From Justusliebigvirus VEcB: a DNA stretch of 64,000 bases. The notes under the pieces are model-generated. The model ran no database searches. It was given only the letters and a program-made list of their open reading frames with translations, and was not told where the DNA came from. The stretch's first letter is position 1, and the number at the start of each line of letters is the position of its first letter. Shown here one piece after another: positions 1 through 44,347 of the stretch. The position numbers were made by a program, and so were the translations under genes. The stretch is from the sequence record OZ035773.1, one strand, 5' to 3'.

Positions 1-59
1 CAAGTTCAGTAAAACTGCAATCCGTGCCGCTATGGTTGGAATGTAAAGGAGACATAAAA

Positions 60-140
60 ATGAAACATCGTTCGACCTATCTGACAAAACGTTTTAGCTT
101 AGATCATAAATTAGGCTATTACGGAAGAAATAGAAAATAA
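60..140 (+). CDS. small hypothetical protein (26 aa)
   Basis: ATG at 60 preceded by AAGGAG (46-51); below track size cutoff. Confidence 0.25.
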   Translation: MKHRSTYLTKRFSLDHKLGYYGRNRK

Positions 141-141
141 T

Positions 142-169
142 TTGACAACGTTTAAAATTAGTGTAAGAT
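142..169 (+). promoter_or_regulatory. sigma70-like promoter (TTGACA 142-147, TAAGAT 164-169)
   Basis: near-consensus -35, 16 nt spacer, -10-like hexamer; directly upstream of stem-loop and gene. Confidence 0.45.
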
Positions 170-180
170 GTATCACGTAG

Positions 181-201
181 GGCGGGAAATGGTTTCCCGC
201 C
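181..201 (+). promoter_or_regulatory. conserved 5' stem-loop ggcgggaaatggtttcccgcc
   Basis: perfect 9 bp stem; identical copy at 1061 and 4895, near-identical at 3369. Confidence 0.6.
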
Positions 202-223
202 AAATCAAAGAAAGGTTATCATT

Positions 224-451
224 ATGGCTATCGTTATTGTTCGCGTATCCGGTACGGTTGGGATCTCCCAGGTAGTAGCAGTTATCACCGAGAAGAAAGG
301 GGATGATCTTCACTCCTCCTTGAATAGCTGGGCGGTCGCTAACTTTGGGCAATGGTCGAGCGTTGAGTACATCGAAGCCTACCAGGTGCCAACGATTAGC
401 CTAACCGATCTAAATGTTGATCGCTTGTTGTGCCTGGATGGATTAAACTAA
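224..451 (+). CDS. hypothetical protein (75 aa)
   Basis: six-frame ORF downstream of promoter and stem-loop. Confidence 0.5.
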   Translation: MAIVIVRVSGTVGISQVVAVITEKKGDDLHSSLNSWAVANFGQWSSVEYIEAYQVPTISLTDLNVDRLLCLDGLN

Positions 452-459
452 AAATAATC

Positions 460-487
460 TTGACAAGATAACTAAAATCAGTAAAAT
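460..487 (+). promoter_or_regulatory. sigma70-like promoter (TTGACA 460-465, TAAAAT 482-487)
   Basis: consensus -35, 16 nt spacer, -10-like. Confidence 0.45.
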
Positions 488-497
488 GTAATGCATA

Positions 498-517
498 GGG
501 CGGCAATAGTGCCGCCC
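498..517 (+). promoter_or_regulatory. 5' stem-loop variant gggcggcaatagtgccgccc
   Basis: GC-rich hairpin between promoter and start codon. Confidence 0.55.
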
Positions 518-538
518 CTAGTGAGAGAGATTATCAAA

Positions 539-754
539 ATGGCTAATATCCGCACCTTGTTAAAAAATGCAAAGCAAGTTTTATTTTCAGATGACGAATA
601 TTTTAATAAAGATATTACAGGCGTGAAAAATCTTAAAGATGTGAAAGATGTGATAGGTATTCGCGGATCTTTACGTAAAGGTGACACATACGGTAACAAG
701 GTGCAATATAAATTAGATCAGTTTTATGATTTTACTTTGACAATTATTTCATAA
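539..754 (+). CDS. hypothetical protein (72 aa)
   Basis: track ORF 491..754 trimmed to in-frame ATG after the hairpin. Confidence 0.45.
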   Translation: MANIRTLLKNAKQVLFSDDEYFNKDITGVKNLKDVKDVIGIRGSLRKGDTYGNKVQYKLDQFYDFTLTIIS

Positions 755-799
755 AACTACTTGCAAACCTGGTAAAATAAAGTAAACTATATTCATTAA

Positions 800-821
800 G
801 GCGGTGGAATAGCCCACCGCC
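800..821 (+). promoter_or_regulatory. 5' stem-loop variant ggcggtggaatagcccaccgcc
   Basis: hairpin upstream of RBS and ATG at 845. Confidence 0.5.
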
Positions 822-844
822 TAACAAAGAGAAGAGGAAACATC

Positions 845-1015
845 ATGATCACTTTCGCTACCCGTGAAGCCGCTCGCAACGTTGCACGTAAAGTTAACGC
901 CGCCAACCTGGGCGCTACGCTTAAAGCCCCGGTGAAAGATGAATCAGGAAAATGGATCTTTCCTGGTCTGCGTCACGCTGATAAGCTGGGAACATTAACG
1001 TTAAAAAATAAATAA
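845..1015 (+). CDS. small hypothetical protein (56 aa), GC-rich codon usage
   Basis: ATG with GAGGAA RBS; absent from track (<60 aa); codons CTG/CGT/GCC atypical for this genome. Confidence 0.4.
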   Translation: MITFATREAARNVARKVNAANLGATLKAPVKDESGKWIFPGLRHADKLGTLTLKNK

Positions 1016-1060
1016 TATTCGCTTGACAGTAGCATCATTTATAAGTAAAGTAACAACAAC

Positions 1061-1081
1061 GGCGGGAAATGGTTTCCCGCC
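1061..1081 (+). promoter_or_regulatory. conserved 5' stem-loop ggcgggaaatggtttcccgcc
   Basis: identical to 181-201; TTGACA at 1023-1028 upstream. Confidence 0.6.
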
Positions 1082-1101
1082 ATCAATAAAGAGATAAGAT
1101 T

Positions 1102-1461
1102 ATGAAATCAGTAAAAGCAATTAAAACTTACATTGTGTCGGCTATTTCTTTTGATGGTACTACAACCGAAAAAGAAAAAATCACCGAACTGATGCGCCGT
1201 TTTAACTCTGAATACTGGTATCAATCTAATCGTGATCGTTATAATAACAATATGGTACAAGCTGTTAAAAGCTGGTTACAAGGTTTACCGTCAGACATCA
1301 ATATCGCTTTTAATTATAACGAGATCGATCAATTATTAATTGAATGGAAGTACATAAAAGAAACAAGCAAAGAAACAACCGTTACCCGTGAGCGGGAAAA
1401 TTATTGGTTATATATTGCAAGCATGATCGTAACTTTGGCAAAATATCATAACGTAGCGTAA
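1102..1461 (+). CDS. hypothetical protein (119 aa)
   Basis: six-frame ORF after promoter and stem-loop. Confidence 0.5.
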   Translation: MKSVKAIKTYIVSAISFDGTTTEKEKITELMRRFNSEYWYQSNRDRYNNNMVQAVKSWLQGLPSDINIAFNYNEIDQLLIEWKYIKETSKETTVTRERENYWLYIASMIVTLAKYHNVA

Positions 1462-1475
1462 TCGAGAGGAAAAAC

Positions 1476-1613
1476 ATGAACGCATCACAGCAGATCGAAA
1501 AATTCAACCGCAACAAAGCGCGTAAAGATTGGAACGAAGAGATCACCAAAAAAGGCGACAAGCGGAACAAAACAAAAAGAGATCGCAGCACAAAAAGATA
1601 CTGGAACGAATAA
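1476..1613 (+). CDS. small basic hypothetical protein (45 aa)
   Basis: ATG with GAGAGGA RBS; followed by terminator hairpin. Confidence 0.35.
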   Translation: MNASQQIEKFNRNKARKDWNEEITKKGDKRNKTKRDRSTKRYWNE

Positions 1614-1614
1614 C

Positions 1615-1642
1615 AAAAAAGGGCGCAATAAGCGCCCTTTTA
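1615..1642 (+). terminator. rho-independent terminator
   Basis: gggcgc-aataa-gcgccc hairpin followed by T run. Confidence 0.55.
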
Positions 1643-1731
1643 GCTTATATAGAGGCTTGTTACCCATAGGCAATGGTAACGCCAGGATAAGCCTATAAAC
1701 CACGTTAGACAGCTTTACAGGAGCTTTAAAA

Positions 1732-1914
1732 ATGAAATTAGAAGAAATAAGCAAGGCACTAGCCCAGGGGCAAAGGTTAAACGCCCGTTATCGTGATCAA
1801 TATGGCTTCATAACCAGCGGCGTGATCCTGGGGATTGAAGGCAATAAGATTTTTATTGACACGTTGAAAAACGTTGTATATAGTGACAATATAATCTCAA
1901 TAAAACATATATGA
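1732..1914 (+). CDS. hypothetical protein (60 aa)
   Basis: six-frame ORF, AGGAG upstream. Confidence 0.45.
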   Translation: MKLEEISKALAQGQRLNARYRDQYGFITSGVILGIEGNKIFIDTLKNVVYSDNIISIKHI

Positions 1915-2324
1915 GGCAAGAAATGAAAAAATTATTGATCGCTGGTTTAATCTCTTTTGGCATGGTTGGAACATCTAGCGCGGCGATATCCTCCACAGTA
2001 GCAGAATTAAGCGCCGTTGATGCAATGGAAAACGTCATGATCATTAATAATGCGATCCCCGATGAAATCATGGAGGATTCACACATGATCGCTTATGGTG
2101 CTGTTACACAACTAACGGCAAAAATAGATAAATCTATTGTTAATGGCTTAAATGAAGATGTACCATGTGAAATTATTACCAGTGTGCTGACTACTCAAAA
2201 TTTTACGCCGTGGCTAAAAAGTATTCAAAAGGTGCATAGTGCAGCCGCAGATCGTAGCAATGAAAAACTAGTGTCAGCACTTGCAACGTATACCCTGGCA
2301 AAATGCACTGAAATAAAAGATTGA
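1911..2324 (+). CDS. hypothetical secreted protein (signal-peptide-like N-terminus; alternative start 1923)
   Basis: KKLLIAGLISFGMVGTSSAA hydrophobic leader. Confidence 0.5.
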   Translation: MRQEMKKLLIAGLISFGMVGTSSAAISSTVAELSAVDAMENVMIINNAIPDEIMEDSHMIAYGAVTQLTAKIDKSIVNGLNEDVPCEIITSVLTTQNFTPWLKSIQKVHSAAADRSNEKLVSALATYTLAKCTEIKD

Positions 2325-2371
2325 CAACATAGAAAGCACGTTATAAGATACACACAACAAAGGAGAACTAC

Positions 2372-2674
2372 ATGAACGGCATAGCTAAAACGTTTTTTCT
2401 TTTTTCTGGTGTAAATGATCCATCAATAAAAGTCGATAGTGTAAAAGAAAACAATACTATCACCGCTAAATTGTTTCAAGATGAAACAAATAACGTGCTA
2501 ATCATTAATCTTAAAGAAATAACTAAAGGTTATTATACTATTGCTTACCATGCGATCTATCATGCTGGTACTAGCGAGGAAGTGCAAACAAGCAACAACG
2601 AAAGCGCGGCGCTACCTGGTGATCTGGTGCTGGGCGTTATCAGTTTAATTGTCAATGATTTTTTTAAGGAGTAA
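2372..2674 (+). CDS. hypothetical protein (100 aa)
   Basis: six-frame ORF with AAGGAG upstream; TTGACA at 2326. Confidence 0.5.
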   Translation: MNGIAKTFFLFSGVNDPSIKVDSVKENNTITAKLFQDETNNVLIINLKEITKGYYTIAYHAIYHAGTSEEVQTSNNESAALPGDLVLGVISLIVNDFFKE

Positions 2675-2678
2675 AACC

Positions 2679-2774
2679 ATGCCCTATTTACATTTATTTT
2701 TCGGGATCTTATTGTCAGGATCTTTTTTCTTCTGTATACTTGTTTCTATTGTAAACCACGTTTTAAGACATTAA
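2679..2774 (+). CDS. small hydrophobic peptide (31 aa)
   Basis: AAGGAG 7 nt upstream of ATG; single predicted TM helix; not in track. Confidence 0.3.
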   Translation: MPYLHLFFGILLSGSFFFCILVSIVNHVLRH

Positions 2775-2783
2775 GGAAACAGC

Positions 2784-2903
2784 ATGAAAATTATTCCCGT
2801 ACAATATAGCGTAATAAATCCAGCATACGAGGAAGGAAGGAAAACAAGCATGGCTTTATGTTATATTGCTACTATAGCCATGTTGTTATATATTGTGTTT
2901 TAA
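2784..2903 (+). CDS. small hydrophobic peptide (39 aa)
   Basis: AAGGAAAC RBS; hydrophobic C-terminus; not in track. Confidence 0.3.
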   Translation: MKIIPVQYSVINPAYEEGRKTSMALCYIATIAMLLYIVF

Positions 2904-3003
2904 TAGGTTTTATAGTTGTACGCTTTAAAGGCTTGACAATTTTTTGTTATGCTTTAAACTATATCTTGAAAACGGCAAAGGCCGCAAACAAAAGGGTAAA
3001 ATT

Positions 3004-3327
3004 ATGAAATCTGTGATCGGTGTTTATTTGGATAACTCTGATTTTTTCTATCATCGCGCTCGTTTCCTTGATGCGATTGAAATGATAGAATCAGGCTTTA
3101 AAGAGTATCGCCTTGCACATGATGACCTAGAAGCATTACAGGGCAATAGTGTTTTTACATTGCAAGCGAAAGCACTATGCAAAAGCCGGATCGACATTGC
3201 GAGCAAAAAGATAGAACGCGGCATGTCCTGGTTACGCACCGCAGAAATCAACATGGGGCAATGGTACGGCGAAAACTTAGAAAATAAACTCACTTTTGTA
3301 AATGTAGAAAATATTAAAGATTATTGA
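3004..3327 (+). CDS. hypothetical protein (107 aa)
   Basis: track ORF 2944..3327 trimmed to internal ATG because TTGACA 2933-2938 lies inside the longer ORF. Confidence 0.45.
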   Translation: MKSVIGVYLDNSDFFYHRARFLDAIEMIESGFKEYRLAHDDLEALQGNSVFTLQAKALCKSRIDIASKKIERGMSWLRTAEINMGQWYGENLENKLTFVNVENIKDY

Positions 3328-3356
3328 TTGACAGCACACCTGATAAGGAGTATATT
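3328..3356 (+). promoter_or_regulatory. sigma70-like promoter (TTGACA 3328-3333, TATATT 3351-3356)
   Basis: 17 nt spacer. Confidence 0.5.
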
Positions 3357-3368
3357 GTATCTCATAGA

Positions 3369-3389
3369 GCGGGGAAATGGTTTCCCCGC
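3369..3389 (+). promoter_or_regulatory. conserved 5' stem-loop gcggggaaatggtttccccgc
   Basis: one-base variant of the 181 element. Confidence 0.6.
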
Positions 3390-3409
3390 CTTAACAGAAG
3401 AGATAAGAT

Positions 3410-3694
3410 ATGAAGATCACAAAAGCACTTTCCAACTATGCAGCACGTCGCGGATTATGCTTATCCGTTGAAAACTTAGGGAAAGAAGATTTTTTGTGCT
3501 TTTGGGAGCTTGAGAATGATAATGAGTGGATCTTCTCTTATTCTATCTGCGAAGATCAAAACGGTTGTTTATTAACCTGGCGCGGTAATATCTATCTACC
3601 GGAAGAAATCAAAGAAGAATTGCCAGGCACGATCATGACTGAGAAACAGCTTAAGGAAGTGATTAATTTTGTAGGGCAAAACATTAAAAAATAA
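3410..3694 (+). CDS. hypothetical protein (94 aa)
   Basis: six-frame ORF after promoter and stem-loop. Confidence 0.5.
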   Translation: MKITKALSNYAARRGLCLSVENLGKEDFLCFWELENDNEWIFSYSICEDQNGCLLTWRGNIYLPEEIKEELPGTIMTEKQLKEVINFVGQNIKK

Positions 3695-3734
3695 TTTGAC
3701 ACTAGGCAAACAACGTAGTAAAGTTTATCACATA

Positions 3735-3753
3735 GGGCGGCAATAGTGCCGCT
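3735..3753 (+). promoter_or_regulatory. 5' stem-loop variant gggcggcaatagtgccgc
   Basis: same loop as 498 element; TTGACA at 3698. Confidence 0.5.
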
Positions 3754-3775
3754 CATAACAGAAGAGAAACAAATC

Positions 3776-3946
3776 ATGATCCCAACTATGTTTTATGTAT
3801 CGCGCAAAGGTCACAATATTTTTTGGTCTGAAGATTTAAATGAAGCCATGACGTTTGCCCGTGATCGTGTTGCTATTGGTGGCGTTAATATCACCGTAAC
3901 CGATGAAAACGGCATTGAATACTATAACGGCGACGATGAAGAGTAA
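3776..3946 (+). CDS. hypothetical protein (56 aa)
   Basis: track ORF 3746..3946 trimmed to ATG downstream of hairpin. Confidence 0.4.
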   Translation: MIPTMFYVSRKGHNIFWSEDLNEAMTFARDRVAIGGVNITVTDENGIEYYNGDDEE

Positions 3947-3953
3947 TTAATGA

Positions 3954-3974
3954 GGCGGGGGAGTATTCCCCGCC
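3954..3974 (+). promoter_or_regulatory. 5' stem-loop variant ggcggggg-agtatt-ccccgcc
   Basis: GC hairpin immediately upstream of next gene. Confidence 0.45.
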
Positions 3975-3993
3975 GTCAATAAAGAGGTAAATC

Positions 3994-4263
3994 ATGAAAA
4001 TATCTTTGGACGTTGCAATCAAGGCCATCGAATCCGGTTACACCCTGGTAAAAGATGATAAGGCTAAAATAGTGCATCATGTTAACAAGGAAACAGGCGA
4101 AAGCATGATCACATATAAAGCCGCCTACTTTCTCCAATCAGTAGCAGATCCGCGCGTACAGCGCCAGGTCACGGCGGCTATTGCTAAAAAATTATGTGCT
4201 TTACAGGGCACAAGTTTTAACGAGATCGCCCCGTGTTTTGACTGGTCGAGCTTGAAAAAATAG
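3994..4263 (+). CDS. hypothetical protein (89 aa)
   Basis: six-frame ORF. Confidence 0.5.
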   Translation: MKISLDVAIKAIESGYTLVKDDKAKIVHHVNKETGESMITYKAAYFLQSVADPRVQRQVTAAIAKKLCALQGTSFNEIAPCFDWSSLKK

Positions 4264-4302
4264 TTTGATAATACGCGGTTATCTGGTAAAGTGTACGACA
4301 TA

Positions 4303-4326
4303 GGGCGGGGCAATAAGGCAACGCCC
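4303..4326 (+). promoter_or_regulatory. 5' stem-loop variant
   Basis: gggcg...cgccc hairpin upstream of ATG 4346. Confidence 0.4.
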
Positions 4327-4345
4327 ATTAATGAGGGGTAGAATC

Positions 4346-4450
4346 ATGTTAGAGAAAATTTTCACGGTTGTAATAGTGGGCCTGGCGTTATCGGTTGGAT
4401 TGGTTGCAACTATGGCTAACATGATCCTATCTTCCCACGGTATCGGCTAA
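4346..4450 (+). CDS. small hydrophobic peptide (34 aa)
   Basis: ATG after hairpin; TM-like VVIVGLALSVGLVA; not in track. Confidence 0.3.
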   Translation: MLEKIFTVVIVGLALSVGLVATMANMILSSHGIG

Positions 4451-4464
4451 AAGAGAAACACAAC

Positions 4465-4851
4465 ATGAAAACAGAAATCATTATTGAAATCATCAACGGT
4501 TATAAAGAAGCCTTTATTTTTGCCGAACCAGCGACGGATCACAATGGGGAATATATTGAGAATCTAGACGATTATGATTTTTCTCCTAGCGCCCTGAAAC
4601 GTATTACCAGCGATGTGACCGCCTTTTGTGATGCCAATGATGCCGCTATCTCTGAGGCAATGAGCGACGGCGCTACAGCAAACCAGATCGGGAATGATTT
4701 ACATTTTACCAGTAACGGTCACGGCGTAGGTTTTTGGGATCGCCCTGAAATATACACTACTAACACCGCCAACCGTTTAACTGATGCAGCTAAATTAATG
4801 CCATTGGTGCATGCTTACATTGGTGAAGATAATTTGATTTATATTGACTAA
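4465..4851 (+). CDS. hypothetical protein (128 aa)
   Basis: six-frame ORF. Confidence 0.5.
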   Translation: MKTEIIIEIINGYKEAFIFAEPATDHNGEYIENLDDYDFSPSALKRITSDVTAFCDANDAAISEAMSDGATANQIGNDLHFTSNGHGVGFWDRPEIYTTNTANRLTDAAKLMPLVHAYIGEDNLIYID

Positions 4852-4856
4852 AAGTG

Positions 4857-4884
4857 TTGACACCGATCCCCAATATGTTATTAT
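4857..4884 (+). promoter_or_regulatory. sigma70-like promoter (TTGACA 4857-4862, TATTAT 4879-4884)
   Basis: 16 nt spacer. Confidence 0.5.
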
Positions 4885-4894
4885 TTACCACGTA

Positions 4895-4915
4895 GGCGGG
4901 AAATGGTTTCCCGCC
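4895..4915 (+). promoter_or_regulatory. conserved 5' stem-loop ggcgggaaatggtttcccgcc
   Basis: identical to 181 and 1061 copies. Confidence 0.6.
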
Positions 4916-4938
4916 AGGTAATCAAAAAGGTAAATACT

Positions 4939-5328
4939 ATGCGCAACCTGGTTTCTGTTTCTAACGTTGAAAAATTTCAATCCTTACAGGGTATCGTTAA
5001 CAACGTAGCGCCTTTTTTAGTAAACGGCTTGATCGCAAAGATGAAAAATAAACATCATGCGGCATGGTCTGCTTACTGCTTTGATAATGATGAAAAAGCG
5101 GCTGAAATGATGTTAGATATGCTGTTAGATAGTGTAGAAACATCTTTACCGGAAAACATCGCAGAAGAGATCACCTATCGTTATAATATGGCGATCACTT
5201 ACCAGGAGGTTGCGCAATTCAACATGATGGATGATGACGAACAACAGGATCAGGAAATGTTCTGGGAGTATGCGGATCGTCAATCAGCTTTTGATGAAAA
5301 ATTAGCGATGTATTATAACGAATATTAA
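4939..5328 (+). CDS. hypothetical protein (129 aa)
   Basis: track ORF 4903..5328 trimmed to ATG after hairpin. Confidence 0.5.
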   Translation: MRNLVSVSNVEKFQSLQGIVNNVAPFLVNGLIAKMKNKHHAAWSAYCFDNDEKAAEMMLDMLLDSVETSLPENIAEEITYRYNMAITYQEVAQFNMMDDDEQQDQEMFWEYADRQSAFDEKLAMYYNEY

Positions 5329-5345
5329 TACACGGTAAAAGAAAG

Positions 5346-5368
5346 GGGCGCACTAAGCGCCCTTTTTT
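5346..5368 (+). terminator. rho-independent terminator
   Basis: gggcgc-actaa-gcgccc followed by TTTTTT. Confidence 0.6.
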
Positions 5369-5515
5369 GTATTCTTTTTCACAATGGAAGCGACACGTAA
5401 AGAATAGGCGTAAAGGTGGCGTAAAACCATCTAAAACCGACTGTAACCGCTTAAACAAGGTAGGAATGATTAATCACCTTACCAGGATGAAAAAGCTGTT
5501 ATAAAGCTATCTAGG

Positions 5516-5812
5516 GTGTTTAAAGGTGACTTGGTTGAAGTTAGAACAACCGAAGGTTATAGCGACGATTATAAATGCGAGATTCATTTACACAACTGGT
5601 ACACGGGTAAAACTTATGCGCTGAATCATGCGTTTATCGGCAAGGTTGAATATAGAGAAATGATCGACGAAGAAACCGGGCAAGATTTTAGCGATCATGT
5701 TTATATTCGTTCAGAAACATTAGCCGAACGTTTGATCGAGAAAATGAAAGCAAAAAATAAAATTAATTTAGCTCATTGGATTGATATAACAAACGATCCA
5801 GCTTATAAGTAA
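5516..5812 (+). CDS. hypothetical protein (98 aa, GTG start per track)
   Basis: six-frame ORF; weak RBS. Confidence 0.4.
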   Translation: MFKGDLVEVRTTEGYSDDYKCEIHLHNWYTGKTYALNHAFIGKVEYREMIDEETGQDFSDHVYIRSETLAERLIEKMKAKNKINLAHWIDITNDPAYK

Positions 5813-5827
5813 ATAACATTTCATACC

Positions 5828-5852
5828 AGGGCGCTTATTGCGCCCTTTCTTT
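5828..5852 (+). terminator. rho-independent terminator
   Basis: agggcgc-ttattg-gcgccct followed by T-rich run. Confidence 0.55.
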
Positions 5853-6059
5853 TTACCTAAATAAAGATGATAGCTTTTACCTATCAAAAACGTTCACCGA
5901 AAAAAGTGAATAGATCGCGGTATCGAGCTAATCAAGGAGCAGATGAACAACCATACCATGAAGATCATAAGGCGTTTACAGCGTGTTTTAGACCGTTTAT
6001 TTTTAATTTCTTCATGCAACTATAGGACAAAAACAGTCTTTTTCTTGTCTTTCCTCTTA

Positions 6060-6076
6060 AATGATAATCATTCTTA
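6060..6076. repeat. palindromic repeat aatgataatcattctta (Fur-box-like)
   Basis: exact second copy at 6118-6134; related copies at 7042 and 7224. Confidence 0.6.
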
Positions 6077-6117
6077 TTTATAGCTGATTATTTATGCAAT
6101 AAACTGCATAATGCAAT

Positions 6118-6134
6118 AATGATAATCATTCTTA
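6118..6134. repeat. palindromic repeat aatgataatcattctta (Fur-box-like)
   Basis: exact copy of 6060-6076. Confidence 0.6.
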
Positions 6135-6524
6135 ACTTAAGACCATCTAACTTATAAAATAATAAGTTATCTAACTAAATTAAAGCTAATTATCTTACTT
6201 TTATTTATAACATACTGTTACTATCTTATTGATAACCTTATATTAAACAACAATAATCAATGTAAATCATTACTAAGCTAACTATAATCTATCTAACCAT
6301 TAAAACTATAACTATAATCTATCGAATTGTTGCACAAAGTAACTATTAAATTGTTAGTAACATTACTAAATAATTCACATCTTATCTATTTATGATCTAA
6401 TCTTTACCTCCCTATTTATTACCTAAATAACCATTTCATGTAGTAATCATTTCATACAATAACTATAACAAGAAATATAATTCGCAAGCGTATCATTAGC
6501 AGCCTATGCCGGACACATAGGCGG

Positions 6525-6670
6525 CTAATAATAACGCAACTACACCCCCCCACATAATAACTATCGCCGATAGTTATTATTTGTGTTTATGTAGCTTGCA
6601 ACAATTGCAAGCGCAACAATATACATGGTATATTGTATTCCCTTACATTGTTGCGGTGCGTTATTATTAG
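6525..6670. repeat. inverted-repeat-bounded palindrome cluster
   Basis: ctaataataacgcaac (6525-6540) matches reverse complement within gttgcggtgcgttattattag (6650-6670); internal palindromes at 6551-6581, 6596-6610, 6617-6635. Confidence 0.5.
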
Positions 6671-6733
6671 CTAATGTTTAGAACATTGGCTATAATATAA
6701 GCTGCATATAATAAGCTATACAATAATAAACAT

Positions 6734-6769
6734 AATGAATAATGACACTGAAATGAATAATGACACTGA
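6734..6769. repeat. perfect 18 bp tandem duplication aatgaataatgacactga x2
   Basis: read directly from sequence. Confidence 0.8.
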
Positions 6770-6909
6770 TGATCATAATGCGCCACCCTCCAGGGGCGCT
6801 ATGTGAACACAAAGAAATCTTTCTTGTCAAGAAAAATATCATCATTATTGCGCAAAATTATTTACATCTGAATAGATGATTTTTCATACTATTGCCCCCA
6901 TATAACTTA

Positions 6910-6968
6910 CTATTTGTTGCAATGTATTCCCCTATTTGTTGAGCATAGTTATAGCCTATTTGTTGAGC
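6910..6968. repeat. three direct copies of ctatttgttg(agc)
   Basis: copies at 6910, 6932, 6956. Confidence 0.65.
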
Positions 6969-7041
6969 CTACTTTCTTAAAAGCGCAATAAATCAGAATT
7001 ATCTTGATTTTTAGGTAGTTTTATAGTATAGAAAATATGCA

Positions 7042-7057
7042 AATGATAATCATTATC
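7042..7057. repeat. palindrome aatgataatcattatc (17/19 match to Fur-box consensus)
   Basis: compared by eye with GATAATGATAATCATTATC. Confidence 0.5.
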
Positions 7058-7261
7058 AGCTATCTTCCACGGGTGGCACTATTTCACACCAGATCATTTC
7101 ATTTGGCAAGGTGTAGATAGATGTTTAGACTTGCCAAGTTATTGATTTACTTAGAATTTATCTGTTTTGTTGTAAGTAGAGCCTTTTTTGCTCAGAAAAT
7201 AATCAAAAGTCTTATAAGTCATTGAATGATAATGCAAATGATAATTATTCTCATTGATATT

Positions 7262-7486
7262 TGAGGGGGACGGTCGGGAAAAATCGGGGGGCGCTGAAAA
7301 TCGCGTTAAGCACCTCTCGCAAGCGAGCAGTATTTTGCGGCAAGTTATTGATATTATTGACTTTACGCTTATGAAAAGGGGGTGTGTCGAAATAAATCGG
7401 GTATACCGGAAAATTTTTGTGGCATAGATATTTATTTGTCTATATTATGTACAAAGGGGTGTGTTAAAAATATTAGGTATATATAG
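7262..7486. repeat. three imperfect ~30 bp iteron-like direct repeats
   Basis: gggg-tgtgtcg-aaataaatcgggtata-like units at 7262-7296, 7375-7405, 7454-7484. Confidence 0.5.
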
Positions 7487-7627
7487 AATAATTGATAGGG
7501 AAATCCTATACTAATTCCTCCATTAATGATGTTTCTATGTTGCTGTTCTTGTAATAGATGAAAAGACGCTGTATGATGTGTGGCATGAAACGTAATCCTA
7601 CAACGTAATCTTATAAAGGAGTCTGAT

Positions 7628-7993
7628 ATGTGTGTTCCTCTTAGCAGTCCACTGCTGTTAGAATTTTACAAAGCATGGATGGAAGATCATTCCTCAATGC
7701 ATCGTGAGAATGTTGGTTTGTGTAATTGCCTTATGGATTACCTGGCAACCACTATGTCAAAGAAAAAACCTACGGAAGAAGATATAGAACATTTCAAGAT
7801 GGTTCGTAGCAAAACGCTGGAAGAGATGAAACTGCAATTCACGTGTGCTGGGCTATCCTCCTTCCTACCCTTTAATTATGATCTTCTGTGTTATGAAGAT
7901 GAAGGTAAGACACATTCTTGCCATACCAACCCAAAGAGATTGCAGTGGGTGAAAGACAGAATCGAAGATGCAAATAATGCTTGCATTGAATAA
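7628..7993 (+). CDS. hypothetical protein, paralog family A (copy 1)
   Basis: shares L-FY-W...GLC-CL-D-L...PFN...QWV-DRI motif with 9690 and 10968 ORFs. Confidence 0.55.
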   Translation: MCVPLSSPLLLEFYKAWMEDHSSMHRENVGLCNCLMDYLATTMSKKKPTEEDIEHFKMVRSKTLEEMKLQFTCAGLSSFLPFNYDLLCYEDEGKTHSCHTNPKRLQWVKDRIEDANNACIE

Positions 7994-8075
7994 AAATGTC
8001 TGTATAGTGGTTTGCATACCGCGCACGACGCGTTTCCATTTTCAATAAAATGTTAGCATTATGGGGAGGTAGAAA

Positions 8076-31233: not shown

Positions 31234-31255
31234 AAAAGGGGCTTTCGCCCCTTTG
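31234..31255 (-). terminator. rho-independent terminator
   Basis: ggggc-tttc-gcccc plus T run. Confidence 0.55.
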
Positions 31256-44322: not shown

Positions 44323-44347
44323 AAAGGGGCTTTCGCCCCTTTTTATT
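44323..44347 (-). terminator. rho-independent terminator
   Basis: ggggc-tttc-gcccc plus TTTTT. Confidence 0.55.

Follow-up and report, generated by a model that had tools for sequence, protein, structure and literature searches.

The window analyzed here, that is, the whole stretch of 64,000 nucleotides from Justusliebigvirus VEcB (sequence record OZ035773.1), contains nine copies of a short GC-clamped hairpin within 5 kb, while the remaining 59 kb has none. In eight of the nine cases, a near-consensus sigma-70 promoter precedes the hairpin, and a ribosome-binding site and a short open reading frame (ORF) come after it. The anatomy proposed in the initial annotation, in which promoter, hairpin, ribosome-binding site and short ORF form one unit, therefore holds in eight copies; the ninth, at 3954, has no credible promoter. 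We refer to these units as cassettes and name them after their first position (c142, for example).

The window region shares 95-97% identity with phages of the genus Justusliebigvirus in the Stephanstirmvirinae (phi92, alia, BME3, Paula and others), which are E. coli myoviruses of about 147 kb. By sequence, the source phage is a phi92-like Justusliebigvirus and not a T4-type phage.

The cassettes and the extent of their array

The nine copies are the following. Coordinates are those of the window, promoters are given as -35 box, spacer length in nucleotides and -10 box, and protein lengths are in amino acids (aa).

142..223, + strand: cassette c142; promoter TTGACA-16-TAAGAT; type A hairpin at 181-201 (exact 21-mer); purine-rich leader; ATG at 224 of a 75-aa ORF; 44.7 bits
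460..538, + strand: cassette c460; promoter TTGACA-16-TAAAAT; type B hairpin GGGCGGCAATAGTGCCGCCC at 498-517; ATG at 539 of a 71-aa ORF; 33.3 bits
761..844, + strand: cassette c761; promoter TTGCAA-16-TAAACT; hairpin AGGCGGTGG-AATAGC-CCACCGCCT at 799-822; ATG at 845 of a 56-aa ORF; 33.9 bits
1023..1101, + strand: cassette c1023; promoter TTGACA-17-TAAAGT; type A hairpin at 1061-1081 (exact 21-mer); ATG at 1102 of a 119-aa ORF; 38.4 bits
3328..3409, + strand: cassette c3328; promoter TTGACA-17-TATATT; hairpin at 3369-3389, type A plus one G:C pair; ATG at 3410 of a 94-aa ORF; 42.4 bits
3696..3775, + strand: cassette c3696; promoter TTGACA-17-TAAAGT; type B hairpin at 3735-3754; ATG at 3776 of a 56-aa ORF; 38.8 bits
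3954..3974, + strand: promoterless intercistronic hairpin GGCGGGGGAGTATTCCCCGCC, 7 nt past the stop codon of ORF 3776-3946 and 19 nt before the ATG at 3994; 34.8 bits
4265..4345, + strand: cassette c4265; promoter TTGATA-16-TAAAGT; interrupted hairpin GGGCG..GC-loop-GC..CGCCC at 4303-4326; ATG at 4346 of a 34-aa ORF; 20.3 bits, E=0.01
4857..4938, + strand: cassette c4857; promoter TTGACA-16-TATTAT (TG-extended); type A hairpin at 4895-4915 (exact 21-mer); ATG at 4939 of a 129-aa ORF; 31 bits

The 21-mer GGCGGGAAATGGTTTCCCGCC (type A) was found exactly at 181-201, 1061-1081 and 4895-4915 on the + strand, in agreement with the initial annotation, and had no match in 100 dinucleotide-preserving shuffles. 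The copy at 3369-3389, which had been taken for a single-change version of this 21-mer, turned out to be GCGGGGAAATGGTTTCCCCGC. It carries an added G:C pair, with the G entering the 5' arm and the C the 3' arm, together with an outer-base change, and with more than 3 mismatches it escapes a 21-mer search at <=3 mismatches. The five further GC-clamped variants that had been proposed (498-517, 799-822, 3735-3754, 3954-3974 and 4303-4326) are real, and the resulting total of nine is also what a covariance model returned. The seed of this model comprised 61 distinct copies from the window and five related phages; since alignment with MAFFT and RNAalifold misaligned the 3' arms (only 3 pairs), an N-padded structural seed was used instead. 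When the whole 64 kb was scanned with filters off, the model gave exactly nine matches, with E-values of 1e-9 to 0.01, confined to 168-4928 of the + strand. They include 4291-4338, which the seed did not contain. The next-ranking matches were these sites read on the opposite strand, or noise at E>2.

The promoter-bearing copies share a fixed geometry. Six of the eight promoters have TTGACA as their -35 box, and the other two have TTGCAA and TTGATA; the spacer measures 16-17 nt and the -10 box reads TAnnnT. An A/T-rich tract (AAAATAAT-type) precedes the -35 box and usually holds the stop codon of the preceding gene. The stem begins 9-12 nt past the -10 box and ends 19-23 nt before the ATG, with a purine-rich leader and a Shine-Dalgarno (SD) sequence in between. 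For the hairpin at 3954, only a poor promoter match was found, inside ORF 3776-3946. Its orthologues, including those of Phapecoctavirus, are promoterless too, and differ from it in the inner stem and the loop. The genes downstream of the hairpins code for proteins of 34-133 aa, which in Pfam and PHROGs scans matched only families of unknown function.

A degenerate site and two sigma-70-like promoters without a hairpin were also found among the cassettes:

2933..3003, + strand: degenerate site; promoter TTGACA-16-TAAACT; 4-bp hairpin CGGC-AAAG-GCCG at 2975-2986; ATG at 3004; 10.9 bits, E=5, not significant
1856..1884, + strand: sigma-70-like promoter without hairpin, inside ORF 1732-1914 and upstream of the ATG at 1923
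2321..2349, + strand: sigma-70-like promoter without hairpin, with a short leader to the ATG at 2372

The cassette family is limited to an array of about 10 kb that adjoins the right genome end. Positions 6966-7308 of the window match the direct terminal repeat of phi92 (95.6%). This places the physical genome end about 2 kb downstream of the last cassette, the window being circularly permuted with respect to the phi92 map, and makes the array the final block before the right genome end, transcribed towards that end. The array is truncated at the left edge of the window, and relatives hold 4-5 further cassettes upstream. In ten loci of relatives (225 kb), the covariance model found 125 copies, every one of them on the + strand and in the homologous array. 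Relatives carry 11-21 copies, alia having 12, phi92 11 and two Phapecoctavirus phages 21 and 16, and zero copies were found in positions 1-50 kb of phi92 or in the remainder of alia 50-100 kb.

We then looked for the element in other collections. A search of window positions 1-8000 against Rfam (E<=1) gave no relevant match. To address a possible host origin, the hairpin with its leader was searched in 5,426 complete E. coli genomes, with zero matches. In IMG/VR, the type B 18-mer gave mostly single, apparently chance matches in unrelated contigs; multicopy matches occurred only in contigs of 97-153 kb and added no lineage. A literature search, of incomplete coverage, found no earlier description of such cassettes in phi92, phAPEC8 or rV5-like phages.

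The geometry extends beyond the cassette stem itself. In the rV5-like Vequintavirus WalterGehring (locus L072), a hairpin lies exactly 10 nt past the -10 box at 3646, 6191, 6908 and 11541. Two of these hairpins use the cassette stem GGCGGGAA...TTCCCGCC, and the rest have unrelated stems, such as GGGGCGAG...CTTGCCCC at 6908. Several neighbouring promoters of this phage have no hairpin. The 10-nt offset between -10 box and stem is also present in Phapecoctavirus. Among the strong promoter-like sites of the window, a hairpin was found at 6 of 10 inside the array and at 2 of 22 outside it, compared to 12 of 300 random positions (4%). Since the value outside the array is about that of the random background, a promoter followed by a hairpin was rejected as a genome-wide design rule.

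Some public entries carry labels that are odd relative to this region (GenBank MG065645, MG065639, MG065689 and others; PQ110661). About 95-98% identity to this E. coli phage region is seen in records named "Campylobacter phage A145/A150/A110a", whose host labels or samples look doubtful. Phage ZYD is classed as a Vequintavirus, yet it matches Justusliebigvirus at 95%.

The hairpin in the predicted transcript

The hairpins have folding energies of -13 to -18 kcal/mol. Leaders were modelled as the stretch between the conserved purine and a point beyond the start codon; in these models the hairpin folds independently, and the SD sequence is mostly unpaired in most of them (z = -2.0 to -4.4). The base pairs at the foot of the stem, GCGG/CCGC, showed no variation in 75 distinct copies, and the inner pairs showed compensated changes, the fifth pair being GC in 46 copies, CG in 22 and UA in 3, and the sixth AU in 59 and GC in 11. 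Pairing was present in 93% of cells, versus 84.5% after shuffling and 38-60% when the partners were slid by 1-3 columns. The loop is usually AAT(A/G)G, and the 5' flank Y-R-T-A-G is conserved. In full-length orthologues, divergence from the window was 1.4% in the -10 box, 2.0% in the -35 box and 2.3% in the stem, compared to 4.5% at codon position 3, 5.0% between -10 box and stem and 8.1% in the promoter spacer.

Because of the 9-12 nt offset from the -10 box, the hairpin cannot sit upstream of a start made from the same promoter. A pyrimidine-purine (Y-R) step is conserved at positions 7/8 after the -10 box, with C in 56 of 75 copies and a purine in 65 of 75. We thus consider position 8 after the -10 box as the most likely transcription start. 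A start at this position predicts a free 5' tail of 3-4 nt, and one at position 6 a tail of 5-6 nt.

On balance, we lean towards the reading that the cassettes are early expression modules, in which the hairpin sits at the 5' end of the mRNA and stabilizes it, and whose repetition leads to modular gene shuffling. Each module would consist of an A/T-rich tract, a near-consensus sigma-70 promoter, a GC-clamped hairpin of 7-10 bp and a purine-rich, unstructured leader with an SD sequence. The promoter is read as a sigma-70 promoter because its boxes are near-consensus and conserved; it would be used by unmodified host RNA polymerase, and expression would presumably be early. At the 5' end of the mRNA, 3-4 free nucleotides (R-U-A-G) would then lead directly into the hairpin. 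In E. coli mRNA, a stem-loop at most 2-4 nt from the 5' end protects against RppH and against RNase E entry. Such protection is reported in the work of Emory, Bouvet and Belasco in 1992 and in later studies of RppH and of the RNase E 5' sensor. A near-terminal stem-loop in the phage transcripts would likewise block 5'-end-dependent decay, at the level of both pyrophosphate removal by RppH and 5'-end sensing by RNase E. With the ribosome site about 10 nt behind the hairpin, little naked RNA would be exposed. In read-through transcripts, an internal hairpin could cap processed 5' ends or block 3' exonucleases, a role that would account for the promoterless copy at 3954.

The hairpin in the ompA 5' untranslated region and the T7 phi10 leader are reportedly 5' stabilizing stem-loops of this kind, known from the same 1992 work. 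Like the cassettes, they present a stable hairpin a few nucleotides from the 5' end, which in the cassettes is a predicted one, followed by an unstructured leader and a ribosome-binding site. However, they are single-gene elements with measured half-life effects, whereas the cassettes form a multicopy family whose 5' position and effect are predicted.

Several points weigh against a stabilizing 5' hairpin. A literature search, again of incomplete coverage, turned up neither mapped transcription starts nor measured half-lives for these phages, so that the place of the hairpin at the 5' end and its influence there are both inferred. If transcription started at the alternative purine 6 nt past the -10 box, the longer tail would exceed the protective 2-4 nt. 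The invariant GCGG/CCGC and the usual AAT(A/G)G loop go beyond the sequence constraint needed for simple stability, and this could reflect either homogenization by gene conversion or a specific binding factor. Furthermore, the alignment was fitted to the structure, and the covariation comes from few hairpin types, each inherited or copied many times, and hence from few independent events. Finally, the two array promoters at 1856 and 2321 do without a hairpin.

A binding factor is central to a second reading, which we regard as unlikely but worth keeping in mind. Here, the hairpin would be the recognition site of a phage or host factor, with a regulator binding either the RNA hairpin or palindromic DNA at +4 to +25. 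Candidates would be an antiterminator of the N/boxB type, a regulator of translation or stability, or a repressor that binds an operator and silences the early promoters jointly. The invariance of the GCGG/CCGC core in all 75 copies and the conservation of the 5' flank and loop are in line with such a site, a common element on all early promoters would permit coordinated control, and the overlap with the start region recalls classical operators. However, the GCGG and CCGC half-sites are 8 to 14 bp apart, depending on the copy, a variation that suits a stem and is hard to fit to a rigid dimeric DNA-binding protein. The hairpin centre is reverse-complemented in KMB37 (see below), indicating that the loop sequence is not essential there, and the promoterless copy and its orthologues retain pairing while the loop changes. 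In addition, no candidate protein was found, the neighbouring small proteins being without known domains.

We also asked how the cassette hairpins compare with terminators. All nine have A-rich tails with 0-3 T in the next 10 nt, and a terminator scan called none of them on the + strand. Three real intrinsic terminators are present in the region. They are followed by 6-8 T, and their stem family, GGGCGC-N5-GCGCCC, is distinct from that of the cassette hairpins:

1617..1645, + strand: intrinsic terminator (hairpin at 1621-1637), GGGCGC-N5-GCGCCC followed by a T-run
5340..5373, + strand: intrinsic terminator closing the array (hairpin at 5346-5362), GGGGCGC-ACTAA-GCGCCC followed by T8
5829-5845: GGGCGC-N5-GCGCCC hairpin with a T-run

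The cassette hairpins resemble intrinsic terminators in being GC-rich and intergenic, and one public record annotates them as such. In phage Paula (L001, LR865361), "terminator" features at 475-499, 927-946, 3798-3821, 4055-4082, 6368-6391 and 6954-6979 cover cassette hairpins, but on the non-coding strand, and they are probably an artefact of automatic prediction. The cassette hairpins differ from the local terminators both in their stem and in the absence of a U-tract on the coding strand, a signature that argues against their being intrinsic terminators.

For the same reasons, we consider it quite unlikely that the stem-loop works as a terminator or attenuator in the style of the promoter-early stem-loop (PeSL) cassettes of T4-like phages, dampening upstream transcription so that each gene depends mainly on its own promoter. 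In favour of this reading, a PeSL stem-loop of RB49 and phi1 cut lacZ expression as strongly as rrnB T1 (PMC2839356). Moreover, the promoterless copy at 3954 comes directly after a stop codon, and the automatic annotation of Paula names these hairpins terminators. However, that annotation is on the wrong strand, the U-tract is missing from the cassette hairpins and present in the real terminators of the same array, and the hairpin lies downstream of its own promoter, where efficient termination would abort its own transcript at about +25.

Two other roles were rejected. The stems are too short for RNase III sites, and N4-type hairpin promoters do not apply because the hairpin lies downstream of a canonical sigma-70 promoter.

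Elsewhere in the window, identical 20-mers AAAGGGGCTTTCGCCCCTTT are found at 31235-31254 and 44323-44342, between minus-strand genes. They consist of an A-tract, a hairpin and a T-tract and resemble bidirectional terminators just upstream of ribosome sites.

Exchange of genes and sequence patches at the cassettes

The window was chain-aligned with seven Justusliebigvirus genomes, and the junctions were inspected. The initial annotation had suggested that the cassettes may mediate gene shuffling, and this found support in chimeric cassettes, hairpin-type swaps and insertion, deletion or replacement junctions that map to the promoter, to the hairpin or to the 3' border of the hairpin. In phi92, the promoter and hairpin of c3696 run on into the leader and gene of a different module, alia_122, with the join inside the hairpin that both have in common, and this fusion leaves phi92 without the two genes at 3776-4263. 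The window, for its part, is without the alia_122 module, and its junction is a 14-nt overlap (4255-4268) in the A/T tract and -35 box. Cassette c4265 is an indel hot spot among the relatives: BME3 has an additional module with its junction within 4283-4309, and phi92 an additional gene inserted precisely after the hairpin, at 4325. At c4857, a different gene follows the same promoter and hairpin in phi92, the junction being at 4914. A further cassette junction was found at 3769.

Exchange is also visible at a smaller scale. At the site orthologous to c3696, five of the seven relatives have a type A hairpin, and the window, BME3 and phi92 have type B, between identical flanks. In BME3, the leader of c460 is replaced by a patch known from other cassettes, and in Paula, phi92 and others, the spacer and -10 box of c142 are replaced by patches that are present in other cassettes. 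In the KMB37 (L068) orthologue of 498-517, the hairpin centre CAATAGTG is turned into its reverse complement CACTATTG with the loss of one C, a change characteristic of palindrome-templated inversion or template switching.

Outside cassettes, two junctions were seen, at 4450-4460 and 5516-5525. At 5516-5525, all relatives examined have 350-675 bp more than the window; this extra DNA holds a gp247-like gene and apparently also the beginning of a gp248-like one. ORF 5516-5812 may be an N-terminally truncated gp248 homologue that arose by deletion without involvement of a cassette. Likewise, a 26-aa mini-ORF with its own SD sequence at 61-140, between the end of a gp232-like gene and c142, is absent from phi92 and EC_OE_11 and represents an insertion without a cassette of its own.

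As cassettes occupy most of the intergenic space, an enrichment of junctions would by itself not be decisive. The chimeric cassettes, however, bear direct witness to exchange inside the repeats themselves. Because the crossover points are scattered across the conserved segment, the pattern is more suggestive of general homologous recombination and of gene conversion than of cutting at a specific site. The cassettes would provide near-identical direct repeats of 45-80 nt every 0.3-0.5 kb as a substrate for both processes, and recombination between repeats would delete, insert or replace promoter-gene modules while leaving the genes unbroken.

Two further readings can be considered. As a long shot, the stem base, the R-U-A-G flank and the AAU(A/G)G loop might together form a dedicated recognition element, acting either as a joint switch for early mRNAs or, in single-stranded DNA, as a structure that mobilizes modules, an idea that can be likened to integron attC sites or PeSL mini-circles. 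If such mobility were true, the subfamily would possess a genuine system for the exchange of gene cassettes. That the repeat is kept mainly for or by recombination, spreading and being homogenized by gene conversion with a hairpin that has no role in expression, would agree with the abundant mosaicism, the conversion patches between cassettes and the invariant core, but seems very improbable, since homology would suffice for recombination and yet the stems have stayed paired, with compensated changes and one inserted pair, the distances to the -10 box and ATG are fixed, and the same geometry recurs with unrelated stems in Vequintavirus.

Relation to known cassettes and repeats

PeSL cassettes have been described in the T4-like phages RB49/phi1, T4/PST and KVP40/nt-1 (Arbiol et al. 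2010, PMC2839356; Comeau et al. 2014, PMC4122927). The cassettes described here are clearly similar to them. Both are repeats of about 70-100 bp made of an AT-rich tract with the upstream stop codon, a sigma-70-like promoter, a GC-rich stem-loop, an SD sequence and a start codon; both cluster in a plastic region of small ORFans; and in both, the insertion, deletion or replacement junctions between close relatives fall within the motifs. However, the PeSL stem-loop occurs in five positional subclasses, mostly between or over the -35 and -10 boxes, and has been interpreted and tested as a terminator (PMC2839356). In the present array, the hairpin is fixed at 9-12 nt past the -10 box, within the predicted transcript, it belongs to one family with an invariant GCGG/CCGC base, and it has no U-tract. 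In addition, the lineage is Stephanstirmvirinae and not T4-like. The T4-type cassette reading of the initial annotation is thus appropriate for the architecture and for the shuffling, but not for the type of phage, a Justusliebigvirus, and probably not for the role of the hairpin. Judged from its sequence features, the system is best described as PeSL-like, a new variant with fixed geometry in a new lineage, and not as a strict member of the PeSL class.

REP/BIME elements of E. coli offer another comparison. They too are short, GC-rich, multicopy intercistronic palindromes that follow a (G/A)TAG-like motif, and they are known mRNA stabilizers. Unlike them, the cassette hairpin is without a match in the E. 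coli genomes searched, has a shorter stem, is tied to a promoter at a fixed distance and occurs only in the early array of the phage.

The comparison shows that shuffling of PeSL-type cassettes is not confined to T4-like phages and also shapes the early host-takeover region of phi92/phAPEC8-like phages and of part of the rV5-like phages, groups that are widely isolated for therapy. In practical terms, it corrects a public terminator annotation that is on the wrong strand and indicates breakpoints to expect or exploit when such genomes are engineered or compared. The cassettes would also supply compact, naturally insulated parts, each combining a promoter, a 5' hairpin and a ribosome-binding site, together with natural variants in which the effect of a 5' hairpin on the lifetime of phage mRNA could be tested.

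At the other end of the window, 16 tRNA genes are clustered on the + strand at 58938-62135, including three for tRNA-Met, two for tRNA-Leu and two for tRNA-Ser.

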